Of a stretch of DNA of 32,000 nt, positions 197 through 18,699 are shown in pieces. The position numbers and the translations under genes are program-made. How positions within the stretch are numbered: the stretch's first letter is position 1; each line of letters opens with the position of its first letter. Source of the stretch: Ignicoccus pacificus DSM 13166 (lineage in GTDB: Archaea; Thermoproteota; Thermoprotei_A; Sulfolobales; Ignicoccaceae); NCBI GenBank assembly GCA_025340205.1, contig CP006868.1, positions 1,650,001-1,682,000 of the forward strand, in the 5' to 3' direction. The notes beneath the pieces were generated by a model. That model was given only the letters and a program-made list of their open reading frames with translations, ran no database searches and was not told the DNA's origin.

Positions 197-853
197 TCAT
201 TCCTTTTTAGCGTAGAGCTCCAGTAGGTTGCACTTCTCGTTGGCGCTGCTCAACGCGCCCTTGAACTCATCAAGGGAAGTTATCACTATGGTATCAGTTC
301 CTACGCTTATGTTTATCGCTATCTTGTCTGGACACATCTCTCCCTTTATCGCTCCTTGACACTCTTCGCCTCCTAGGAGACCCTCTATTCTGAGACAACT
401 CGTAGTTTCTATTTGGGAGAGCGCGTCGTAGAGCAGCGTCAGATCTCCTTTCGCAGCTGCGTGGAATTCAACCAAGTTTCTGAGTTCGACGGGAGCGGAA
501 ATAGTCAATGAGACTCTAGCCATAGGATTTTCCTCAAGATCTATTTCGACTTTGTGTTCGTCGAGCTCTATTATTTCCGCGTACCCCTCGGCTCTGTCTA
601 AAGCTTGCTCTAATATAGGAATAGCTTCGGTACCGACGAGCAGTCTTCCGTTCTTCTCAATTTCTAGTCCCACCACTCTATTCTTGTTCATTTCTATCCT
701 TATCAATACAGTATCGTTACCCACCCTACCGTCGAAGACTATTCTTCCTATGAACTTTTTCGAGGAAAGGTCGATAAGTAGGTCCCTCAAGCTCAGCTCA
801 AAGGGACCTACTCGCTTGAAGCCGATGGTCTTTCCTCTGCTAATGAAAGGCAT
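197..853 (-). CDS. Hypothetical protein with an N-terminal DUF4388/PATAN-like domain, possibly tandem (ORF A, last gene of the minus-strand operon).
   Basis: 218-aa ORF. Its ATG lies 2 nt after the stop of the upstream ORF. The N-terminus GPFELSLRDLLIDLSSKKFIGRIVF...NKNRVVGLEI...GTEAIPILEQAL...GYAEIIEL follows the DUF4388 pattern as I remember it (G-x-L-x-x-x-S-L-x-D-L-L...G-x-I-x-F...G-x-V-x-x-A...G-x-E-A). Confidence 0.65.
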   Translation of the reverse strand: MPFISRGKTIGFKRVGPFELSLRDLLIDLSSKKFIGRIVFDGRVGNDTVLIRIEMNKNRVVGLEIEKNGRLLVGTEAIPILEQALDRAEGYAEIIELDEHKVEIDLEENPMARVSLTISAPVELRNLVEFHAAAKGDLTLLYDALSQIETTSCLRIEGLLGGEECQGAIKGEMCPDKIAINISVGTDTIVITSLDEFKGALSSANEKCNLLELYAKKE

Positions 854-855
854 CT

Positions 856-1311
856 CTAGCGTTCACCTCCAGCCTTCTTTAACTCCTCGACGACCGTGTT
901 AAAGTTTGGAGTTTCTGGGGAAACTATGTACACTGAGAAAACGCTAGCCCCACGACCTATTAGTATGAACAAGTGGTCCTTGAAATCGCTCTTCCTCGAC
1001 TCGACGAAGAATATAACGTTCTCGAGCTCTTCCCTAAGTTCCTTAAACATTCTAGCCGTATCGTCTTGAAGATCCTTCCCTAAAACTAAGAAGGATTTGT
1101 GAAGTACTATTCTCGGTTTCTCATTAAGGAGTTGACCTTCAGGTGGTTTAGTCTTATAACCCAATATCTTGTACCTCACGAGCTCTCGTCTGCTCTGGAT
1201 GGTTATCGCGGAAACGGCAGTTCCTATCTCACTTAGTTCGTTACCTAACTGTTCGATCAGTTTCTTGAGCTTGTTGATGAAGTCATCGGCACCAAAGCCA
1301 ATTATTATCAT
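856..1311 (-). CDS. Hypothetical 151-aa protein (ORF B). It may have a Roadblock/longin-like alpha-beta fold, but this is unproven.
   Basis: ATGA start/stop overlap with the upstream ORF at 1308-1311. No P-loop or TM segment. The helix-then-strand pattern KLIEQLGNELSEIGTAVSAITIQSRRELV is only weakly Roadblock-like. Confidence 0.5.
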   Translation of the reverse strand: MIIIGFGADDFINKLKKLIEQLGNELSEIGTAVSAITIQSRRELVRYKILGYKTKPPEGQLLNEKPRIVLHKSFLVLGKDLQDDTARMFKELREELENVIFFVESRKSDFKDHLFILIGRGASVFSVYIVSPETPNFNTVVEELKKAGGER

Positions 1312-2048
1312 GCCTTCACAACCCCCGTAACAACGTTTTTCGCTTTTTCAACAATTCTTCTATCTATTTTGAAGTTTATTGGAGGACACGAAAGAGGTTT
1401 AGCATGGGTAACTATCCACTTGCCCGGACTTTCTATTGGGTAATTAAACGCGTCCGCGCCAGTTATGGGTTCAACTTGCTCTGGCATGGAAAGAGAAGCA
1501 CCTATCACTACCTTATTACAGATCACGATATCGAGTACCCACCTATCAGTAACTGAAACTATGTTGTATGCCATCGTATCTGCCATCAACAAATCCTTTA
1601 GTGTTAACACCGGTGTATCAACGACTAGTAGATCACTTCCCCACTTCTTGTCGTCGACGGCTACAGAGCCGGGTTCAAATAAGTGAATGACCGGAAACAA
1701 TATTCCTTCGAGAACGACACCTTCTGTTACGACGACCTCTTTTATTAAAGAGAGGAGAGACTCTATAGAGTCCAACTTTATGTAATCTTTGTCATTGCTT
1801 TCGACGATGAGTTCAGGATCACTCATTTCTATTATGCTTATATCTACATCCCTACCTATTGAGAAGGCCGTTAAATCACCCTTGTACGCTATAGGTACAC
1901 CGTCAACCATAAGAATGTCCAAGGTAGGCCACTTGACAGAGATCTTACCCTTCAAGCCTTTAGAACGAGCATAGTTCAAAGCATTTAACATGTTCTTATA
2001 TTTATGAGTCAGCTGGCCACAACTCCAACATATATCCATAACCATCAC
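1308..2048 (-). CDS. Hypothetical 246-aa protein with a C-terminal DUF4388/PATAN-like domain (ORF C).
   Basis: Its start (GTG 2048 or ATG 2045) overlaps the TGA stop of the upstream ORF. The C-terminal segment LTLKDLLMADTMAYNIVSV...DIVICNKVVIGASL...ITGADAFNY repeats the motif seen in ORFs A and D. There is an N-terminal CWSC pair. Confidence 0.6.
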   Translation of the reverse strand: MMVMDICWSCGQLTHKYKNMLNALNYARSKGLKGKISVKWPTLDILMVDGVPIAYKGDLTAFSIGRDVDISIIEMSDPELIVESNDKDYIKLDSIESLLSLIKEVVVTEGVVLEGILFPVIHLFEPGSVAVDDKKWGSDLLVVDTPVLTLKDLLMADTMAYNIVSVTDRWVLDIVICNKVVIGASLSMPEQVEPITGADAFNYPIESPGKWIVTHAKPLSCPPINFKIDRRIVEKAKNVVTGVVKA

Positions 2049-2695
2049 CCCGGAAGGATCCTTTCAATACCGAAGTCAGACAAGTATCTCAACGCAATTT
2101 CGACGATACGGTCCCAAGGGATATCGCCGAGTATTTCAACGTGTAACCTTGCTGTTCCATTATCGACCTTTAACCTGAATTCCCTGACATCGGCTCCTAA
2201 GGCCTCTAATTGATGCAGAAATCCGAGCACCGCTTTGCCCAAAGACACTATTCCGTACGAAGCCACGTATCCGCTGGCAACGTCGGAGCTCACGAGGGCG
2301 TCTGCAGACATTTCTTCAAGGAGAGAAATTTCTTCTGGTGGTGGGTAGAAGAGTATGTTGACGAGTTTGGGTGAACTCTTTAGATCGTCAAGCATCTTCC
2401 TCCAAGCCTCTTCGCCTTTTAACTCGCCCCATTTCGCATCGTGTATGGTACCATTGCATACCACAAAGGAGCCTCTCTTACCTTTGGGAATTTCTACCTC
2501 TATTTTAACACATGAGGAGTCCTTTATCTTCTGCATCGAGGAGACCAAACAATCTCCCGTACCGTTTGAATATCCTATGGGAATCAGCTTGATTAGAGTC
2601 GAAATAGTTGATCCCACCTCTAAACAAACTTCAATAGAAATAAAGCTTAACTGAAGAGTGTTGAGGGGGTAAGCCCAATCGTGAGTGGTGATCAC
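2045..2695 (-). CDS. Hypothetical 216-aa protein with a DUF4388/PATAN-like domain (ORF D, first gene of the minus-strand operon). The start is uncertain.
   Basis: Segment CVKIEVEIPKGKRGSFVVCNGTIHDAKWGELKGEEAWRKML matches the G-x-I-x-x-A...G-E-E-A core. The maximal GTG start at 2695 overlaps the 5' end of the divergent ORF E. The alternative ATG at 2536 would cut into the domain. Confidence 0.55.
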   Translation of the reverse strand: MITTHDWAYPLNTLQLSFISIEVCLEVGSTISTLIKLIPIGYSNGTGDCLVSSMQKIKDSSCVKIEVEIPKGKRGSFVVCNGTIHDAKWGELKGEEAWRKMLDDLKSSPKLVNILFYPPPEEISLLEEMSADALVSSDVASGYVASYGIVSLGKAVLGFLHQLEALGADVREFRLKVDNGTARLHVEILGDIPWDRIVEIALRYLSDFGIERILPG

Positions 2696-3286
2696 TCGAA
2701 AAGCGTGAAAAAGGTGAAGGACGCTAAGGACGTCTTCACTGCTGTCCGAACGATAAACAAAGGTATAGCAATATTGCTGCTACTCAAAAAAGACCTAACT
2801 TGGAATAAGTACGTACTACACATCAGCGAACACAAGCTGGTCTCCGGAGAGCCGAAGATACCCACAGAGCAAGACTTCAAGGATGCCATTCTAGCATTGC
2901 TAATAGTTCCTAAGGTAAAGATAGTCGAAGAAGGAATTGAGAGAGTAGTCGAAAGCGCCGGACTAGATATTGAGGCGCTGCCCGACGATGTTAAGAAGTT
3001 GGTGCAACTAATACCCGGAATTGAGCTATTCATACCTGACAAGGAGCTGGTTGAAGCCAGCGTCGGTGAAACTATAATCCCCCCTGAGCAGATAATGGAC
3101 GAAGTCGTTAGAATAGTTGAAAATATGATCAATGAATTAGGATTAAAGGGAGAAGTAAAAGTGACCGGGCGCGAGCTCTATGTAGTGATTAGCAAGAGAG
3201 TTCCCAAGAAGTTAGTACAACAATTAGAGAAGGCCCTCAAGGCTAGGCTTGGAGACTTGTATGAGGTAAAGGTAACCACGGGGTGA
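2681..3286 (+). CDS. Hypothetical 201-aa protein (ORF E, first gene of the plus-strand operon).
   Basis: GTG at 2681 is preceded by GAGGGGGT (2663-2670). An alternative GTG at 2705 is preceded by GGTGAT. The stop lies 6 nt before the next ORF. Any resemblance of its N-terminus to the DUF4388-like pattern is weak. Confidence 0.55.
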   Translation: MSGDHSKSVKKVKDAKDVFTAVRTINKGIAILLLLKKDLTWNKYVLHISEHKLVSGEPKIPTEQDFKDAILALLIVPKVKIVEEGIERVVESAGLDIEALPDDVKKLVQLIPGIELFIPDKELVEASVGETIIPPEQIMDEVVRIVENMINELGLKGEVKVTGRELYVVISKRVPKKLVQQLEKALKARLGDLYEVKVTTG

Positions 3287-3292
3287 TGAATC

Positions 3293-4201
3293 ATGATATT
3301 CTTCTTCGGTAGGAAGAAAAAGGAAGAGAGCATTGTAGTTGGAATAGACAAGGACAACGTATTCGGGACGATGAGCCCCAAGGGAGGTGTCGGTAAGACT
3401 AGCATAACAGTAGAGATAGCCTTCCTTATCGCACAGAAAGACATCAGCGTTGCATTAGTTGACTGGGATCTGTGGTCTCCCAGGTTGACCAGCAGGCTAT
3501 TGGGAAGCAGCGAAGGCCCCGGACTTTTGGAACTCTTGCTCGGCGAGGCTAATCCTGATGAAGTAGTCAGAGAGGTAGAGTTCACCACAGTTACCGGTAA
3601 GGTAGTTAGGGTAAAACTAGTTCCCGCTTCTAGTAAAGAAGCCTTGGCGAAGGGTGAGGTCAAGAGACTAGCAAGCGAACTGGAACATAAGTACGACAAG
3701 GTGAAGGCAAGAGCAGTTGCACTATCCAATTACCTATCCGGTCTCAATGACATAGTCTTCAATGACTACCCCGTACCAAGCGGACCAGCCCCGGCACCCT
3801 TCCATAAGATAGCCGCCAGTGCCACCCATTGGTTAAACATAGTCATAGACGCCGTCCCCGTCACAGCCGAATACGCTGCTAGGTACGTGGAGATGTTCTA
3901 TCCGACGTTGCCGGTATTCGTAGTCTTCGTCAACATGATAAAGCCTGTCCACCATGAGTACAGCGCTGCGGTAGCGAGGGCTCCGGAGCTATGTAAGAAG
4001 TTCGCCGCGAAGTACGTAGCATTCATACCCTTCGACGGAAAGTTATATGACGTGAAGGTATCCGGAGCAGCGCCCCCAGCAAGCATCAATTACAAGCCCA
4101 CGGAGTCTGCAGCTTTGAAGGTATTGAGAGATGCGGCGATGAAGATAGCCAGGAGGGAGAAGCCTCCGGGATGCGTCGCCCTACATCTAAAGGTTCTTTA
4201 A
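3293..4201 (+). CDS. MinD/ParA-family (SIMIBI class) deviant Walker A ATPase (ORF F).
   Basis: Deviant Walker A SPKGGVGKTS with the signature Lys. A' motif LVDWDL. Hydrophobic-D Walker B (IVFNDYP). The MinD-like C-terminal region FIPFDGKLYDVKVSGAAPP. GGGTGA Shine-Dalgarno motif 6-7 nt upstream of the ATG. Confidence 0.8.
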   Translation: MIFFFGRKKKEESIVVGIDKDNVFGTMSPKGGVGKTSITVEIAFLIAQKDISVALVDWDLWSPRLTSRLLGSSEGPGLLELLLGEANPDEVVREVEFTTVTGKVVRVKLVPASSKEALAKGEVKRLASELEHKYDKVKARAVALSNYLSGLNDIVFNDYPVPSGPAPAPFHKIAASATHWLNIVIDAVPVTAEYAARYVEMFYPTLPVFVVFVNMIKPVHHEYSAAVARAPELCKKFAAKYVAFIPFDGKLYDVKVSGAAPPASINYKPTESAALKVLRDAAMKIARREKPPGCVALHLKVL

Positions 4202-4224
4202 CGATTAATAGGGGGTGAAGTATC

Positions 4225-4539
4225 GTGAAGAAAGAATGGCAGAATGAAGTCCAGAAGGTCCCAGGATATGAGGTAGCGTGGTACGTCGTCTATGAAGTAA
4301 GTGATGTGGAGATAGAGGTACTGGATTATGAAAACATAGACACAGCAACTATAAATACACTCAAAGGTATAGTTGCTAATATAATTCATGACTTAAAGGC
4401 AATATCCGAGAAAGAGCTGAAGGCAATACCAATAGAGAAAAGGAAACTGGACGTCGTCACCAGAGCTAAGGGTGGATACATCAGTATGAGCTTAGTTGCT
4501 GATAACATGCTAGTGATGGCAGGTCTTAGGAAGAAATAA
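4225..4539 (+). CDS. Small Roadblock/LC7 (MglB-like) domain protein (ORF G).
   Basis: 104 aa. GTG start preceded by GGGGGTGA at a 6-nt spacing. The pattern ...VQKVPGYEVAWYVV...(helix)...KLDVVTRAKGGYISMSLVADNMLVMAGL fits the Roadblock alpha-beta-alpha layout (L-x-x-V-x-G-V-x-x-A...L-x-V). This was recognised by eye only. Confidence 0.5.
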   Translation: MKKEWQNEVQKVPGYEVAWYVVYEVSDVEIEVLDYENIDTATINTLKGIVANIIHDLKAISEKELKAIPIEKRKLDVVTRAKGGYISMSLVADNMLVMAGLRKK

Positions 4540-4541
4540 AG

Positions 4542-4916
4542 TTACGACAACTTAGCTATAACCACCCTTACTCGCGATCCGTCCCAGATGGCCCTTATAT
4601 CAAAGGGCGCTTCGAGCTCTGATTCTGAGAATATCGTCTTGAAGATGGCTGTCGTAGACCTTAATGATTTCGATGCCATTACAGCGTGAGCGAGGATAGG
4701 AACCAACTGCGAGAGGACCAAGTCCTTGCTAGGATCAACTAACACTGTCATTCCAGGATAGCTTGCTGAGCCGGCTCCCTCTCCCTCCCATTTCTCATTA
4801 AGAAGCTCCAATATTTCTTTGATTCCATTTATGTTCTCGCTGAGCACTTTTTCCATAGCTTCTATTAGTTCCTTGAAGTTGTTGTATTTGGCTACTTCAA
4901 ATGGCAACGTTCTCAC
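4542..4916 (-). CDS. Hypothetical 124-aa protein, translationally coupled to the upstream aminopeptidase gene.
   Basis: GTGA start/stop overlap with the pepA stop (4913-4916). I recognised no motif. Confidence 0.5.
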   Translation of the reverse strand: MRTLPFEVAKYNNFKELIEAMEKVLSENINGIKEILELLNEKWEGEGAGSASYPGMTVLVDPSKDLVLSQLVPILAHAVMASKSLRSTTAIFKTIFSESELEAPFDIRAIWDGSRVRVVIAKLS

Positions 4917-7288: not shown

Positions 7289-8278
7289 TTAAAGCGCTTC
7301 GCGCCCTGTTCTAAGAAGTCCTCCTCCAGCCCTTCTTAGTAGTACGTTGAAGTAGCGGTCACTAATTTCACATCTCCTATGAGCCAGTTTAAGGGGTAGA
7401 GGATATCCTTTTACTGAATAGTAAATTAGTATTTTAAAGATCTCTTCCATTTCGTCTTCGTTAACATTTCCTAGTACCTCAACTACGTAAACGCTACCTC
7501 TTTTACTGAACTTCATATACGATCTACTTATCGTTACTGTTTCTTGGGGGCTACACCCGACCTCGAGTTCTTGTATGAAGGGTTTTGTGAAACCAGGAGT
7601 CTTTGCTAACACATCTATTATCTCTATATCATATATCTCCGGATCGTTAAACACGGAATTATCCATAAACGATTTGCCCACGTAAACCGTCGGAACCTTG
7701 CGTGCAATCCTAGCTACTTCTTTGTACATCTCCTTTTTCCATCCACACTCAACTCTTATGGCTTCAGCTACGTCGTTAGTATTCCTTACTCTTACTAATA
7801 GTTCATCTAGAGTACCCTTGAAGGGAGTGCAACCATACGCGCTCAAGTCTGCGTGACACTTGCTAGCAACGCTGAACATGCCATCCATCATCATAAAGAA
7901 TGTTGGATTCGCTTCTGTAAAATCGGAATAGAGTTCTGCCTCTAGACCTTCCATGTACATAATAGTTCTCTCTCGCCAGAACTGAGGAAAACGTAATATT
8001 CCCATCTTTTCCTTTTTGGGAGTCTCTTCAGTAGAACCCTTGGGTATTTTGATTACTACGGCCCTAACGGCAAAGACAGTAGCCGCGTGAAGCTTCTTCC
8101 TGTTGACAGAGCCATCGATAGCAGCTACGGGTATACCATCAGACCTTTCTGTAATATCCATCGAGTTCCAGAGTTCGTTAAACTTATCCATGTATTCTTC
8201 GGCGAGCGTCCTTAACGCGTTTTGTGTAAGTATCGACCTCAATTCAATTGAATCTTTAATTAGACCTTGATAGACCAA
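7289..8278 (-). CDS. nurA: NurA-domain 5'-3' nuclease.
   Basis: NurA hallmarks: VAAIDGS (catalytic Asp motif), FFMMMDGMFS (second D-G motif), VGKSFMDNS, and the C-terminal GYPLPLKLAHRRCEIS (Y-P-x-x-L-x-x-A-H). 329 aa. Head-to-head with a HerA gene. Confidence 0.8.
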   Translation of the reverse strand: MVYQGLIKDSIELRSILTQNALRTLAEEYMDKFNELWNSMDITERSDGIPVAAIDGSVNRKKLHAATVFAVRAVVIKIPKGSTEETPKKEKMGILRFPQFWRERTIMYMEGLEAELYSDFTEANPTFFMMMDGMFSVASKCHADLSAYGCTPFKGTLDELLVRVRNTNDVAEAIRVECGWKKEMYKEVARIARKVPTVYVGKSFMDNSVFNDPEIYDIEIIDVLAKTPGFTKPFIQELEVGCSPQETVTISRSYMKFSKRGSVYVVEVLGNVNEDEMEEIFKILIYYSVKGYPLPLKLAHRRCEISDRYFNVLLRRAGGGLLRTGREAL

Positions 8279-8310
8279 TCCCGACCCCCCACATTAATAT
8301 CTCTTTGTAC

Positions 8311-8340
8311 TATGATAATACGCTCGGGCATGGTATTTAT
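8311..8340. promoter_or_regulatory. A/T-rich divergent promoter region between nurA and herA, with TATA-like elements TATGATAATA and GTATTTAT.
   Basis: The elements lie about 25-35 nt upstream of the nurA TTG (8278, minus strand) and of the herA in-frame ATG at 8369 (plus strand). The call is by spacing only. Confidence 0.35.
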
Positions 8341-8368
8341 GGAAACACAGTTCACTGAAAGTGTATAC

Positions 8369-10066
8369 ATGGAAGATGAGAGTGTAGGATATGTCGTTGG
8401 AGAGACTTCGACAACGCAAGTAGTCGCTAGATACGATGGTAAAGTCATTAGAGGAAAGTACGTTATAGTAAAAGGAGAGGACAAGTACCTACTAGGACTC
8501 ATCGAGGATGTTAGAAGCAGAAGTGATCTAATTGAGGATGGATTACATACCGAAGACATAAAGAGAATAGTTGAAGAGATAGGTATGGACGAGAAGGCGG
8601 TTTATGCCAAGATACGTTTGTTAGCCGAATTGGACGAACTCTTAAATGGAAAGATAGTCCCTCCGAGAACGGCCCCTCATCCCGGAGCAGAAGTACGCGT
8701 AGCTTCAGATGAGTTGTTGAGAAGGATCTTTACGAAGGATAACGATCCCAGATATATTCGTATAGGTACGTTAGCTGCACATCCTAATGTTCCGTTCTTC
8801 GTTAACTTAAATCAAATAGTTACGAGGCATTTAGCTATACTAGCGGTCACTGGAGCCGGAAAGAGTAACACCGTAACTGTTCTCTCAGAAAGAATTGCAC
8901 GAAAAGGAGGCATAGTCGTTATATTTGATATGCATGGAGAATATAGCAAGGCCACCGATGAGGAGCTAATAAATACAATAAAAGGTAAGATCAATCCTAA
9001 TAAAATAGATCACAGTAGTTTCGTTAGATTACTTAATCTTAGAGAAGCACCTAAGCAAGAGCTCTATATTAGGAACTTACTTAAAGCATGGAATGTGCTA
9101 TATCAAGGTAACTTCTATAAGGATCCCTCGGATATGCTAGACGCGCTAAGTGAGATGTTAGAGGAATTAATGGGTGGGAGCAAGTTACCTATAATAAAGG
9201 ATCCTTACTTAGTATCAAAGGCAGTTGATGAGGAGCTTAGGAAGAGTAAGACTATACACATGAAGCCTTTGAAGTTCTTGATAGGTTTCGTCAAGGGTAA
9301 TCTAGCTTCGGCGAGGTATAGCTTTTGCAAGGATCCGGAGAGATGTATGTCAGCTATGAGCGTTCTTGACGTTCCTGGTACTGACAAGAACTCGACATTA
9401 CCTTCATTGATGATTAAATTGGAGGATATGAAGGAGAGGTATAAGGAAATAATTGATTTTGCATTTAATGACATAATTGATAAAATAGAGAAAGGAAAAA
9501 TAAATGTTGTTGATCTCAGTACCGTGGATGAAGACGCAGCCGATGTTATAGTGAGCACTTTCCTAAAGAGGATACTATTTGAAAGAAAGAGATATGTTCA
9601 GAGCGGAGGAACAGAGGGCTTCAAGTACCCATTGCTGGTGGTCTTGGAAGAGGCTCACATCCTCGCTCCACGTGATAGGAGTACGAGTACCAAGCATTGG
9701 GCTGCTAGGGTAGCTAGGGAGGGAAGGAAGTTCGGGGTAGGGATATGCTTGGTTTCCCAGAGACCTAAGAACGTCGACCAAGATACCTTGAGTCAGGCCA
9801 ATAACATGATAATCTTAAGGTTAATCGAACCGAGTGATCAGAAGCACGTGCAAGCGAGCAGTGAATCGCTAAGCGACGACCTTCTCTCGCAACTTCCCTC
9901 TCTGGCAACCGGAGAAGGGGTGGTTCTGGGTCCAATGACTACGTTGCCGGCTTTGGTAAAGATAGATAAAGCAGAGAAGAAGGTAATTGGAGCAGATATA
10001 GATGTCGTCAAGGAGTGGCAGAACGAAGAGAGAGTGGAGGTAGAAGACATTTGGTCACAGCTGTAG
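8369..10066 (+). CDS. herA: HerA-family hexameric ATPase/helicase (FtsK-HerA superfamily).
   Basis: N-terminal HAS-barrel-like VGYVVGETSTTQVVARYDGKVIRGKYVIVKGEDKYLLGLIEDV. Walker A AVTGAGKSNT. Walker B LLVVLEEAH. The QRP motif (CLVSQRPKNVD). The track ORF begins at 8267, but that start would overlap the nurA 5' end. The ATG at 8369 fits the TATA spacing. Confidence 0.85.
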   Translation: MEDESVGYVVGETSTTQVVARYDGKVIRGKYVIVKGEDKYLLGLIEDVRSRSDLIEDGLHTEDIKRIVEEIGMDEKAVYAKIRLLAELDELLNGKIVPPRTAPHPGAEVRVASDELLRRIFTKDNDPRYIRIGTLAAHPNVPFFVNLNQIVTRHLAILAVTGAGKSNTVTVLSERIARKGGIVVIFDMHGEYSKATDEELINTIKGKINPNKIDHSSFVRLLNLREAPKQELYIRNLLKAWNVLYQGNFYKDPSDMLDALSEMLEELMGGSKLPIIKDPYLVSKAVDEELRKSKTIHMKPLKFLIGFVKGNLASARYSFCKDPERCMSAMSVLDVPGTDKNSTLPSLMIKLEDMKERYKEIIDFAFNDIIDKIEKGKINVVDLSTVDEDAADVIVSTFLKRILFERKRYVQSGGTEGFKYPLLVVLEEAHILAPRDRSTSTKHWAARVAREGRKFGVGICLVSQRPKNVDQDTLSQANNMIILRLIEPSDQKHVQASSESLSDDLLSQLPSLATGEGVVLGPMTTLPALVKIDKAEKKVIGADIDVVKEWQNEERVEVEDIWSQL

Positions 10067-10848
10067 GCTTGGGAGGAATCGGAGGTACCCTAATAGCCCT
10101 AGCTCATTCTCCAAAGGTAGATAGAGTCGTGGTCTTAAGATCATGCAAGAGACGCGACGTGAAACATGCTAAGAAAGTAGCTGATAGCGCCTTTTTGGTA
10201 AATCCCAGTACGATGATAAACAAGAAACCATCCTTAGAAGGTCAGTTAGCTTCCAAGGACTATGAAACGTATGTTGTCTGTCTAGATTCTCCATGGCCTA
10301 TGGTGTTGGAAAGCGTAGACGTAGTCGTCGAGGGAGATGTGGTAGCTGGAGATATGGCATGTTTATGCAGTCCCAAACCTCCTAGATGCTTTCCTTCATT
10401 TAAAGCCTTAGCTGCCTTGGGAGAGCGCGAGGGTGTCCTCGTTAGCTCGCTCCTAGGGAGACCCCCTGCAGACGCTAGCTGTGTTGCCGAAAGGTTAGAG
10501 AGAAACATCCACTGCTTCAAGGGTCGAAGAGTGCTATCCGGAAAACCTCTTGAGGATTACATCAGGTTATTGGATTATCTTTATGCCAAAGTTCCTAACA
10601 GTATGATAATAGAACTTCGAAAGGAGGTGCTAAAGGGTAAGCTGGAGATCCTCGAGTTCGATTACCCGTGCTTTTACGAGTTCTCGAGAGACGCCCAAGC
10701 CCTTAGACAAAAGGGTCCTAAAGACTTTCGTATAGGGATGAAACCTTGTAAAGGAGACCTTACCGAAGTGCTTAAGAGAATAGGAGTTGAGTTAGGAGGT
10801 GACGAGAGTTCCGCAGATTCCCTCCACTATAGCTCTTCTGACGTTTGA
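10015..10848 (+). CDS. Hypothetical Cys/Arg-rich protein with an N-terminal Rossmann-like GxGGxGG motif. It overlaps the herA 3' end and the pyrH 3' end.
   Basis: VTAVGLGGIGGTLIALAHSPKVDRVVVL resembles a dinucleotide- or ThiF-like nucleotide-binding loop, but the downstream acidic/SNL-RQ ThiF motifs are not visible. Possible starts are GTG 10015 or TTG 10051. The ORF overlaps convergent pyrH by 57 nt. Whether it is coding is not certain. Confidence 0.4.
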   Translation: MAERRESGGRRHLVTAVGLGGIGGTLIALAHSPKVDRVVVLRSCKRRDVKHAKKVADSAFLVNPSTMINKKPSLEGQLASKDYETYVVCLDSPWPMVLESVDVVVEGDVVAGDMACLCSPKPPRCFPSFKALAALGEREGVLVSSLLGRPPADASCVAERLERNIHCFKGRRVLSGKPLEDYIRLLDYLYAKVPNSMIIELRKEVLKGKLEILEFDYPCFYEFSRDAQALRQKGPKDFRIGMKPCKGDLTEVLKRIGVELGGDESSADSLHYSSSDV

Positions 10849-17817: not shown

Positions 17818-18699
17818 CTACCATTCAATTTCTGCTATTGCCTTCACCAATTCCATATCAAGTAATCCTCTCGTTACGGTCATACAAGCTTGACCGCGTC
17901 CCTTTTTCCATAGCAAATATGCTATACAGTCCAGCAACATATTGACTTCCAAGCTACCCCAGTCTATCCTCCTGTAAAGTCGTGTCATAAACAGTATAAC
18001 CAAGGTCTTTATCTTACGCGATGTTATATTGAGAACCTCATTTATCAACATTCTTCGTTCATTGGGATCAGCTATGGTTCTTGGGTTTACTTGGTTAATT
18101 ACAAAAGCCTTGGGAAGGAAACCCATTGTCACTTCTGCCACCTTTAATGTTCTTTCGATCTCTACAATGCTAGCCTGAGAGAGAAGCACGCTCTTCGCGT
18201 CCAAGGAAGAAATTACACACTTTAATATCGGTATATCAGCGAAGCTCGCAGCCGGCGTGTCCATGACTATCAAGTCGTAGTACTCCGATATAGTGAACAG
18301 AGTTTCGGCGACTTTCTTAGCAGCATACTCTATTCCGTGCTCTGCTATCTCGGCAGAGTACTTTATTGCAGACTCGATGGTTCCGGAGGGAATGACATGT
18401 AAATAACCGTTGTAGAGTGTATGTATGAATTTATCCAGTTCTCCACCGACTTCCAATACGTCATACCATCCCTTCAAGTTCCTAGCTTCCTCTCCTAGGA
18501 AGAACCTCGAGGCACCGTCTCTGAAGTCAGCGTCGATTAGCAAGACCCTCCTCTTAGCTTTGGCAGCAGCGCTTGCTGAGATCAATGCACTGGTCGTTGA
18601 CTTTCCTACGCCACCCTTAATACCCCACACAGTGATGATCCTGCTATTTCGTAAAAGAGGAGGACAACCAAAATCTCTCTTCCTAGATCTTAACGGCAC
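17818..18699 (-). CDS. Second MinD/ParA-family deviant Walker A ATPase, with no adjacent partner gene.
   Basis: IKGGVGKSTT, LLIDADFRDG and LIVMDTPA (Walker B). 293 aa with a C-terminal extension of about 90 aa. GTG start. Confidence 0.75.
   Translation of the reverse strand: MPLRSRKRDFGCPPLLRNSRIITVWGIKGGVGKSTTSALISASAAAKAKRRVLLIDADFRDGASRFFLGEEARNLKGWYDVLEVGGELDKFIHTLYNGYLHVIPSGTIESAIKYSAEIAEHGIEYAAKKVAETLFTISEYYDLIVMDTPAASFADIPILKCVISSLDAKSVLLSQASIVEIERTLKVAEVTMGFLPKAFVINQVNPRTIADPNERRMLINEVLNITSRKIKTLVILFMTRLYRRIDWGSLEVNMLLDCIAYLLWKKGRGQACMTVTRGLLDMELVKAIAEIEW

Follow-up and report, generated by a model that had tools for sequence, protein, structure and literature searches.

What might an ATPase of the MinD/ParA type be doing in an archaeal gene cluster that encodes a Roadblock-like protein and no small GTPase? 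The question is raised by a 32,000-nucleotide stretch of the Ignicoccus pacificus DSM 13166 genome (contig CP006868.1, positions 1,650,001 to 1,682,000; the whole of this stretch is here called the window, and coordinates count from its first letter), at one end of which two groups of small genes, A to D and E to G, stand back to back. An earlier reading of the DNA letters by themselves, made without database searches and referred to below as the sequence-only reading, took these genes for a positioning or switch module in which F, a MinD-type ATPase, takes the place usually held by a small GTPase, G is a Roadblock-like protein, and A, C and D are adaptors of the PATAN (DUF4388) kind. Comparison with related genomes and with sequence and structure collections supports the core of that proposal: the genes belong to an uncharacterised module co-conserved in Thermoproteota, its sole recognisable enzyme is a SIMIBI ATPase of the MinD/ParA type, and this enzyme is encoded together with a protein of predicted Roadblock fold in the absence of a GTPase, as judged by Pfam for F and by a structural model for G. 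A literature search returned no earlier description of the cluster, of the F subfamily or of a ParA/MinD-Roadblock pairing.

An eight-gene block conserved among related archaea

The block was found in loci L001-L011, always in the same order and orientation, with A-B-C-D divergent from E-F-G and H following. The loci came from contigs encoding F relatives, from metagenome-assembled genomes (MAGs), from one JGI metagenome contig and from contigs reached through members of the G cluster, and they fall into some five lineages of related, Desulfurococcales-like hot-spring archaea (Thermoproteota), all uncultured; the cluster is very rare. Two MAG loci ('Desulfurococcales archaeon' and 'Thermoproteota archaeon') were found among 185,579 species-representative genomes, and a collection of 5.8 billion proteins yielded six close relatives of F only. 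Identity to the window varies from 25 to 85% across loci depending on the gene; in the comparison from which this range comes, A is 40-41%, B 27-36% and E 57-70% identical, within or close to the orthologue ranges given with each feature below.

197-853, minus strand: gene A, 218 amino acids (aa); two-domain soluble protein with a predicted internal duplication of a β-α-β-β-β-β-α-β module; orthologues 38-46% identical
856-1311, minus strand: gene B, 151 aa; no assigned function; by eye a helical N-terminus and a β-α-β-β C-terminus; possible distant paralogue of H; orthologues 27-47% identical
1308-2048, minus strand: gene C, 246 aa; no assigned function; possibly two copies of the module of A; orthologues 37-56% identical
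2045-2617, minus strand: gene D, 190 aa from a corrected GTG start at 2617; no assigned function; orthologues 27-40% identical
2618-2680, no strand: divergent intergenic region, 63 bp, with a conserved A/T box; putative promoter region
2681-3286, plus strand: gene E, 201 aa; best-conserved cluster-specific protein; candidate partner or activator of F; orthologues 56-70% identical
3293-4201, plus strand: gene F, 302 aa; divergent deviant-Walker-A ATPase of the ParA/MinD/Mrp class; orthologues 70-85% identical
4225-4539, plus strand: gene G, 104 aa; Roadblock/LC7 fold in a predicted structure; orthologues 37-52% identical
4542-4916, minus strand: gene H, 124 aa; no assigned function; convergent with G; orthologues 25-54% identical

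In most loci the block is flanked by a methionine-synthase gene on one side and by pepA, NurA and HerA on the other. The most divergent locus, L001, has wholly different flanks (genes for an ABC transporter ATPase and ribosomal protein S7, and for SufC-like and SufBD proteins), and all eight genes are retained there despite these unrelated surroundings; this comparison of gene content is good evidence that A-H is a functional unit. The co-conservation among related genomes on which the sequence-only reading depended was thus borne out. Its count of seven genes was short by one: A to G are real, and all of them appear in the list of open reading frames (ORFs) at the positions first assigned to them, but it missed H, which belongs with the cluster because each locus has it beside G, even L001 with no pepA. 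In the window H and pepA share 4 nt (4913-4916), where the start codon of the one meets the stop codon of the other, and H may be co-transcribed with pepA in this lineage, though in L001 the gene is found with the cluster and without pepA.

The tight packing of the minus-strand genes described earlier is confirmed in the sequence. The start of C overlaps the stop of D by 4 nt (GTGA) within GTGATG at 2043-2048, the start of B and the stop of C share ATGA at 1308-1311, and A lies downstream of B after a spacing of 2 nt (854-855). On the plus strand, GGGGTGA lies 6 nt ahead of the F start (ATG 3293) and GGGGGTGA, likewise of Shine-Dalgarno type, 6 nt ahead of the G start (GTG 4225), much as had been read by eye; a GGTGA-type motif before internal operon genes is usual in crenarchaea. 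A further Shine-Dalgarno-like motif, GGGGGT, precedes E at 2665-2670.

The start of D had been placed at 2695, within a 216-aa ORF overlapping E, which now seems too far upstream. Since D orthologues are 181-186 aa long and their alignment begins only near residue 27 of that ORF, and since a TTTATTT box stands 24 nt ahead of a GTG (2617) in the frame of D, the start is most likely GTG 2617, with no overlap between D and E; a divergent region of 63 bp would therefore separate the two genes. The distance from TTTATTT to this GTG is as expected for a leaderless archaeal transcript of D. In six loci the same position is taken by a conserved A/T box, which reads AAATAAAGCTT on the plus strand of the window (core ~2638-2644); over the window and L001-L005 its forms are AAATAAAGCTT, AAAATAAGGCTT and the like. 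Lying 24 nt from the start of D and 40 nt from that of E, it could be a TATA-type element shared by the two operons and acting in both directions.

None of the eight proteins contains a segment resembling a transmembrane helix (Kyte-Doolittle means over 19 residues peak at 1.85, in a stretch with charged residues), and Pfam and NCBIfam gave no GTPase or DNA-binding family match for them, in agreement with the sequence-only reading. The proteins are acidic overall, apart from the tail of E described below. Rfam and tRNA scans of the window gave no matches. The flanks are the housekeeping genes that had been recognised, a Meth_synt_2 methionine-synthase gene and one for an M17 leucyl aminopeptidase (pepA), as in the syntenic loci. 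Beyond pepA, window positions 7289-10848 hold NurA (identified by synteny), HerA (DUF87/HerA_C) and a conserved unannotated gene of ~250 aa (277 aa in the window), a stretch that is syntenic in most of the related loci.

The ATPase F

F is the part of the cluster on which sequence methods speak most directly. It passes the Pfam gathering thresholds of both ParA (PF10609, 37.7 bits against a cutoff of 27.1) and CbiA (PF01656, 34.3 bits against 25.4), and the SPKGGVGKTS motif from which it had been named a deviant Walker A MinD/ParA ATPase is present and, in its family, invariant. Equally invariant are LVDWDL, the D-x-D of switch I, and the Walker-B-like IVFNDYP, and the solved relatives BceF and CFD1 line up with KGGVGKT at their Walker A and with LVDWDL at their switch I. 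Because the three motifs with their signature lysine are invariant, F is apparently catalytically competent.

Its place within the class is harder to fix. F scores 24.0 and 23.8 bits against the MinD models TIGR01968 and TIGR01969 (cutoffs 212.9 and 201.75), 25.3 bits against the ParA partition model NF041546 (cutoff 180), and 32.4 and 25.6 bits against Mrp/NBP35/ApbC models (cutoffs 450 and 348), and so groups with neither MinD proper, ParA/SegA-type proteins nor the iron-sulfur (Fe-S) carriers; it is below all NCBIfam equivalog cutoffs for MinD, ParA partition, Mrp/ApbC, bacterial tyrosine kinases (BY-kinases) and ArsA. Neither the CxxC motif of Mrp nor the tyrosine cluster of BY-kinases occurs in its sequence. 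The best NCBIfam match is to NF047398, 'KGGVGR-motif variant AAA ATPase', at 42 bits (cutoff 90; E-value 1e-10). Against PDB sequences only the N-terminal third, from P-loop to switch II, finds BceF, MinD, CFD1 and Mrp (E-value ~1e-5), with matches limited to MinD, Mrp and BY-kinase proteins at E-values of 1e-5 or above.

An exhaustive HMMER search of 1.84 billion representatives with F returned 320 matches at E <= 0.001. Beyond F's own cluster just five of these are full-length (P0015-P0019, E-values 5e-79 to 5e-17), the rest covering the P-loop region only, and for the C-terminal half of F no relative could be detected beyond five small clusters. By these matches, F evidently belongs to a small ATPase subfamily specific to Thermoproteota, of which only its own branch is tied to the cluster. 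P0016 (L016, 5179-6138) and P0017 (L017, 7001-7870) are stand-alone paralogues, with E-values of 4e-48 and 1e-23 against the F profile; their genomes, GCA_054005295 and GCA_054017055, also carry the cluster, the paralogues themselves have no A-H neighbours, and one of the two adjoins a gene for an M50 site-2 protease. The most distant full-length relatives, P0018 (L019, 7001-7921) and P0019 (L021, 7001-7903), have the Walker A lysine replaced by arginine (STKGGAGRTT and SFKGGVGRTM, KGG[AV]GRT), in agreement with the NCBIfam 'KGGVGR-motif variant' family. P0018 is encoded in the complete 1.39-Mb genome CP006867.1, which we take to be that of Ignicoccus islandicus, between genes for a 371-aa membrane protein resembling tetratricopeptide-repeat (TPR) proteins and a 198-aa unannotated protein, beside CRISPR adaptation genes; the neighbours of P0018 and P0019 are unrelated to the cluster genes.

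The ends of the protein may bear on its localisation. Residues 1-12 of F (MIFFFGRKKKEE, window 3293-3330) form a conserved hydrophobic-then-polybasic peptide, a hallmark of the family that is MIFFFGRKKK in F, GILDRLFGRKKRR in L014 and MLPIFKKK elsewhere, and that is kept even in the distant relatives. It resembles the amphipathic membrane-targeting sequence of MinD-type proteins, though at the opposite end of the protein, and by that analogy could itself be a membrane-targeting sequence. The C-terminus of F (...PPGCVALHLKVL) is not amphipathic-basic, unlike that of MinD proper.

The closest relative of F outside the cluster, P0015, is encoded in a high-GC archaeon (L014, 3977-7889) among genes that could represent a rearranged variant of the module. 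The F-like gene is followed there by unannotated genes: a convergent one for a 131-aa protein; one for a protein of 250 aa that is Roadblock-like in its N-terminal pattern and has a double zinc ribbon (Pfam DZR, E-value 9e-4) and a transmembrane tail; two for proteins of 196 and 233 aa, which align along their whole length with D and C; and one for a FUN14 membrane protein. If real, this variant would link the module to the membrane. Searches with hmmsearch and hhalign for divergent A-H genes among the neighbours in L014, L019 and L021 gave nothing significant (probabilities < 1% in L014), so that the likeness is anecdotal.

The window also encodes a second, more canonical ParA/MinD-type ATPase of 293 aa (17818-18699, minus strand), with GIKGGVGKST, LLIDADF and VMDTPA motifs and Pfam matches to AAA_31 (6e-14), CbiA (4e-11) and BcsQ-like (5e-7). 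Its relation to F is generic only (BLASTP E-value 0.65), and the F-family HMM does not pick it up. The 159-aa ORF downstream of it looks, by eye, like a nucleoside-diphosphate kinase.

The predicted Roadblock fold of G

The assignment of G as a Roadblock/LC7 protein holds at the level of fold but not of sequence. Its AlphaFold2 model, built from six sequences (predicted local distance difference test score, pLDDT, 79.9; predicted template modelling score, pTM, 0.71), has a short helix followed by β-β-α-β-β-β, with strands at 15-25 and 30-36, a helix at 40-64, and strands at 75-81, 84-92 and 95-103. Nearly all of its top 50 Foldseek matches in the PDB belong to the Roadblock superfamily, with template modelling (TM) scores of 0.5-0.6 and probabilities of ~1.0; they include Streptomyces Roadblock/LC7 (3kye), Asgard Roadblock proteins (9jue and 7f8m), dynein LC7 (3l7h) and MglB (6hjm), as well as LAMTOR/Ragulator subunits and the C-terminal domains of Rag proteins. 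Because the list is almost purely of this superfamily, we accept a Roadblock/LC7 fold for G on the strength of the model. Pfam Robl_LC7 (PF03259) gave no match at E <= 10 for G or four orthologues, and a PDB profile search with G returned no Roadblock protein. A match of G to the designed repeat protein 7rdr was dismissed as compositional, no stretch of it passing by itself.

Roadblock/LC7 proteins are regarded as NTPase regulators and, for small GTPases, act as platforms or regulators of nucleotide state; to our knowledge, Roadblock regulation has so far been tied to small GTPases and dynein. No small-GTPase family match was obtained by Pfam or NCBIfam for A-H, nor for the genes around the cluster in the related loci. 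Of 328 'orphan' MglB/Roadblock homologues counted in a survey of small GTPases in prokaryotes, none is characterised, and many such orphans have no known partner (PMC4316618). G would be one such orphan, with a candidate partner from a different NTPase class.

E and the accessory proteins

After F, E is the most conserved protein of the cluster. Its N-terminus is a basic tail, K-x-[VI]-K-[KP]-V, that is conserved and similar in kind to the peptides by which partner proteins of ParA/MinD stimulate ATPase activity, and this analogy makes E a candidate partner of F and its putative activator. PDB sequence-profile searches with the seven proteins other than F returned nothing significant, and Pfam gave no match for B, C or H. 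Two marginal profile matches are kept as leads only, one of E (residues 21-103) to the HORMA protein Rev7 (6v8p_D, E-value 0.036, perhaps by chance) and one of B to the P1 ParB protein (E-value 0.07). The likeness of B and H is weak (BLASTP E-value 0.33, hhalign probability 2.5%).

The AlphaFold2 model of A, built from ten sequences, has a pLDDT of 87.2 overall and > 92 over its N-terminal domain. It consists of two domains, residues 1-116 and 129-217, joined by a flexible linker, and because both follow the same order of elements (E-H-E-E-E-E-H-E, in strands and helices) A is, in its predicted structure, an internal duplication of a β-α-β-β-β-β-α-β module. The fold as modelled appears to have no close solved relative: Foldseek matches in PDB and BFVD are only to clamp-like and uncharacterised viral proteins, the likeness being one of topology (β-α-β-β-β repeats), and neither the window protein nor its orthologues have a Pfam match. 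Homology to sliding clamps was considered and rejected, since the E-values of ~1e-4 in PDB and BFVD go with TM scores of 0.13-0.32 and root-mean-square deviations > 13 Å. Four invariant cysteines, C153, C165, C174 and C208, all fall in the second domain, which suggests a metal or redox site.

Whether C and D are made of the same module was approached by domain-level hhalign with enriched alignments. None of the 55 pairs tested is significant once that number is allowed for; the best pair between families, A_C-D_N (N- and C-terminal domains are marked _N and _C), reaches a probability of 12%, followed by C_N-C_C (4.2%), A_N-D_N (2.5%) and A_N-A_C (1.6%). The ranking is as a shared module predicts, and A_N-A_C, A_N-D_N and C_C-D_N align over most of their length. 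On these alignments, the idea of one module recurring in A, C and D is reasonable but unproven. The 'recurring domain signature' reported for the three proteins is visible by eye and has no statistical counterpart, pairwise BLASTP giving a best E-value of 0.26 and hhalign at most 5.5% for whole proteins and 12% for domains.

The name given to that signature fares worse. Segments of A, C and D do follow, by eye, a PATAN-like pattern ('G..v.A....G.eA...l'), but Pfam PF14332 matched none of the window proteins A, C, D and E, no A orthologue and no module consensus of A, C (both halves), D or E at E <= 10. A PATAN seed was assembled from the N-terminal region of PatA, validated as a positive control by PF14332 (55.7 bits, E-value 6e-15), and one plasmid-borne homologue (Allocoleopsis), the sole record returned by a tblastn search of plasmids. 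Aligned with this seed by hhalign, A, C, D and E gave 0.9, 0.1, 0.2 and 0.1%, with all probabilities <= 1.5%, at the low power of two sequences; the non-significant alignments cover A 1-113, C 134-216 and D 26-167, the very regions singled out before. A word-indexed search with the N-terminal module of A found another A-family fragment only and no DUF4388-annotated protein. The model of A has no PATAN-annotated or Roadblock neighbour in PDB or BFVD, neither of which appears to contain a PATAN structure, and a literature search returned no paper describing the PATAN fold. We consider the PATAN label unsupported, and with it the link to bacterial MglA/MglB/PATAN logic that the label was meant to supply; of the two similarities at stake in the sequence-only reading, Roadblock is found by structure and PATAN is not found.

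A possible mechanism and its alternatives

We hypothesize, tentatively and at somewhat less than an even chance, that the cluster is a lineage-specific switch or positioning module driven by a MinD/ParA-type ATPase, which E would activate as its partner and G would regulate as a Roadblock-type protein. This proposal starts from the order and coupling of the genes, their co-conservation, the family and motifs of the ATPase, the architecture of A and the Roadblock fold of G; what it would add are the interactions among the proteins and the cellular role, with F dimerising and binding the membrane, E activating it and G regulating it. F would be the engine, forming an ATP-dependent sandwich dimer as do other members of its class, and the dimer might attach to the membrane through the N-terminal hydrophobic-polybasic peptide. 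E, encoded just upstream in the same operon, would act as its partner, stimulating ATP hydrolysis with its lysine-rich tail, and G, encoded directly downstream, would serve as a dimeric platform or as regulator of the nucleotide state. A to D and H might be soluble adaptors or cargo, at least A being made of a duplicated α/β module, and the output would be a nucleotide-dependent switch or the positioning of some cellular component.

Several points weigh against this proposal. F stands about as far from MinD as from the Mrp/NBP35 Fe-S carriers and the BY-kinases, and behaviour of the MinD/ParA kind is not assured. Since its paralogues stand alone and its distant relatives lack the cluster, the ATPase subfamily can work without A-E, G and H. 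The Foldseek E-values of G are just 0.013-0.08, and no sequence method detects Roadblock in it. The activating tail of E and the membrane-targeting peptide of F are read from a resemblance to motifs of other systems, while interactions, ATPase activity and localisation are predicted only, with no cargo identifiable from the sequences.

Each of the rival explanations seems to us weaker. The one nearest to the sequence-only reading, a polarity module like bacterial MglA-MglB-PATAN in which A, C and D are true PATAN adaptors and the MinD-type ATPase replaces the small GTPase, is unlikely. It agrees with the modelled fold of G, with the α-β-β-β…α-β order expected from a PATAN-like pattern and contained in the N-terminal domain of A, with the by-eye pattern in A, C and D and the placement of the (non-significant) seed alignments, and with the occurrence of PATAN proteins sometimes encoded near MglA/MglB genes (PMC4316618), but it meets the lack of any PF14332 match at E <= 10 in window proteins, orthologues or consensuses, hhalign values of at most 1.5% against the PATAN seed, no significant similarity among A, C and D, and a search with the A N-module that led only to another A-family fragment. 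Quite unlikely, too, is a module for metal-centre or Fe-S maturation or delivery, with F resembling Mrp/NBP35/CooC-type SIMIBI NTPases and the cysteine-bearing proteins A, D and F as scaffold or target. F does match Mrp/ApbC/CFD1-type proteins about as well as MinD; invariant cysteines occur in A (four), in D (C36 and C54) and in F (C234 and C294 only, 60 residues apart); and in L001 the cluster lies one gene from the SufC-like and SufBD genes. Yet F is without the CxxC that bridges the cluster in Mrp/NBP35, the Suf neighbourhood is found in one of about five lineages, and Pfam and NCBIfam gave no Fe-S or metallochaperone family match for any partner; we also know of no Roadblock-fold partners of Fe-S or metal maturases.

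The broad ParA/MinD affiliation of F, a basic tail on E like that of ParA partners, the marginal ParB match of B and the weak resemblance of the A model to sliding clamps would all suit a ParA-type DNA segregation system with a novel centromere-binding protein. We nevertheless think such a system improbable: Pfam and NCBIfam gave no helix-turn-helix, ribbon-helix-helix or other DNA-binding family match, a search in and near the cluster found no multi-copy or centromere-like repeats, F falls far below the ParA partition and MinD cutoffs and has no close match to a solved ParA/SegA-type protein, the proteins other than the E tail are acidic overall, the clamp matches have TM scores < 0.2, and the block occupies a stable site in the chromosome, not one on a plasmid or mobile element. 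More improbable by far is a cassette for anti-virus defence or of mobile-element origin. The very narrow and patchy distribution would fit one, as would the Ignicoccus-type F relative near CRISPR adaptation genes and the weak match of F, over its P-loop region only, to a PADLOC candidate model (PDC-M28B, E-value 1e-6). In the same PADLOC-DB scan, however, the other seven proteins matched nothing, and no defence system was hit by several proteins. The GC content of the cluster is similar to that of the remainder of the window, many contigs keep it in stable synteny between housekeeping genes, and no integrase, transposase or flanking repeats were found.

To return to a MinD/ParA-type switch or positioning module, its fullest form would be a self-contained archaeal polarity or positioning machine in which Roadblock-type regulation acts on a SIMIBI MinD/ParA-like ATPase, F being a membrane-binding ATP switch, E its activator, G its regulator or platform, and A, C and D adaptors made of an undescribed duplicated module. 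We regard this fuller form as doubtful; if true, it would provide the first functional partner for one class of 'orphan' Roadblock/MglB proteins. ParA/MinD ATPases and Roadblock proteins are among the most widespread spatial organisers of cells, known from separate systems, and were their coupling functional here, the idea of Roadblock proteins as NTPase regulators would extend from small GTPases to another class of P-loop NTPase. The operon would then suggest a role for a part of the orphan Roadblock/MglB proteins, hundreds of which are uncharacterised, and add a positioning or switch system to the Thermoproteota, whose cell biology is poorly known, with accessory proteins that appear to include at least one fold lacking a close solved relative. 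The practical limits are severe, since the cluster-bearing relatives are uncultured and the family is tiny.

Comparison with known systems

Among the systems that could be compared, none characterised matches the cluster, SegAB included, given the scores of F, the Roadblock-fold G and the lack of repeats. Like SegAB, the cluster is archaeal and chromosomal and combines a ParA-class ATPase with small archaea-specific partner genes; unlike it, the cluster has eight genes rather than two, no centromere-like repeats, an ATPase without specific similarity to solved ParA/SegA-type proteins, and, after F, a Roadblock-fold gene instead of a SegB-like DNA-binding one. NF047398 is the best NCBIfam match of F, and P0018 and P0019 carry its KGG[AV]GRT motif, but F itself reaches less than half of the 90-bit cutoff and keeps the canonical lysine (KGGVGKT); a literature search found no published function for this family.

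With MglA-MglB and the conservons (CvnA-D) the cluster shares a Roadblock-fold gene beside a P-loop NTPase gene, several small soluble accessory proteins and the logic of a nucleotide switch. Its NTPase, however, is a SIMIBI ATPase and not a TRAFAC small GTPase, no Ras-like GTPase gene is nearby, G is not Robl_LC7 by sequence, there is neither a histidine kinase nor DUF742, and PATAN is not detectable.

The positioning systems built on MinD/ParA ATPases, MinD-MinE, ParA-ParB, McdA-McdB and PomZ-PomXY, offer the other comparison. The cluster differs from them in that F lies far below every MinD/ParA equivalog model and bears its candidate membrane peptide at the N- and not the C-terminus, that the partners number seven, include a Roadblock fold and do not resemble MinE, ParB or McdB, and that no cargo or DNA site is evident in the cluster. 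What it has in common with them is a deviant Walker A ATPase with signature lysine, a switch I motif and a Walker-B-like one; a short terminal peptide, amphipathic or polybasic, by which this ATPase may bind the membrane; and, next to F in one operon, the small gene of a partner, E, with a basic N-terminal tail. We regard the cluster as a ParA/MinD-type module with an unprecedented set of partners.

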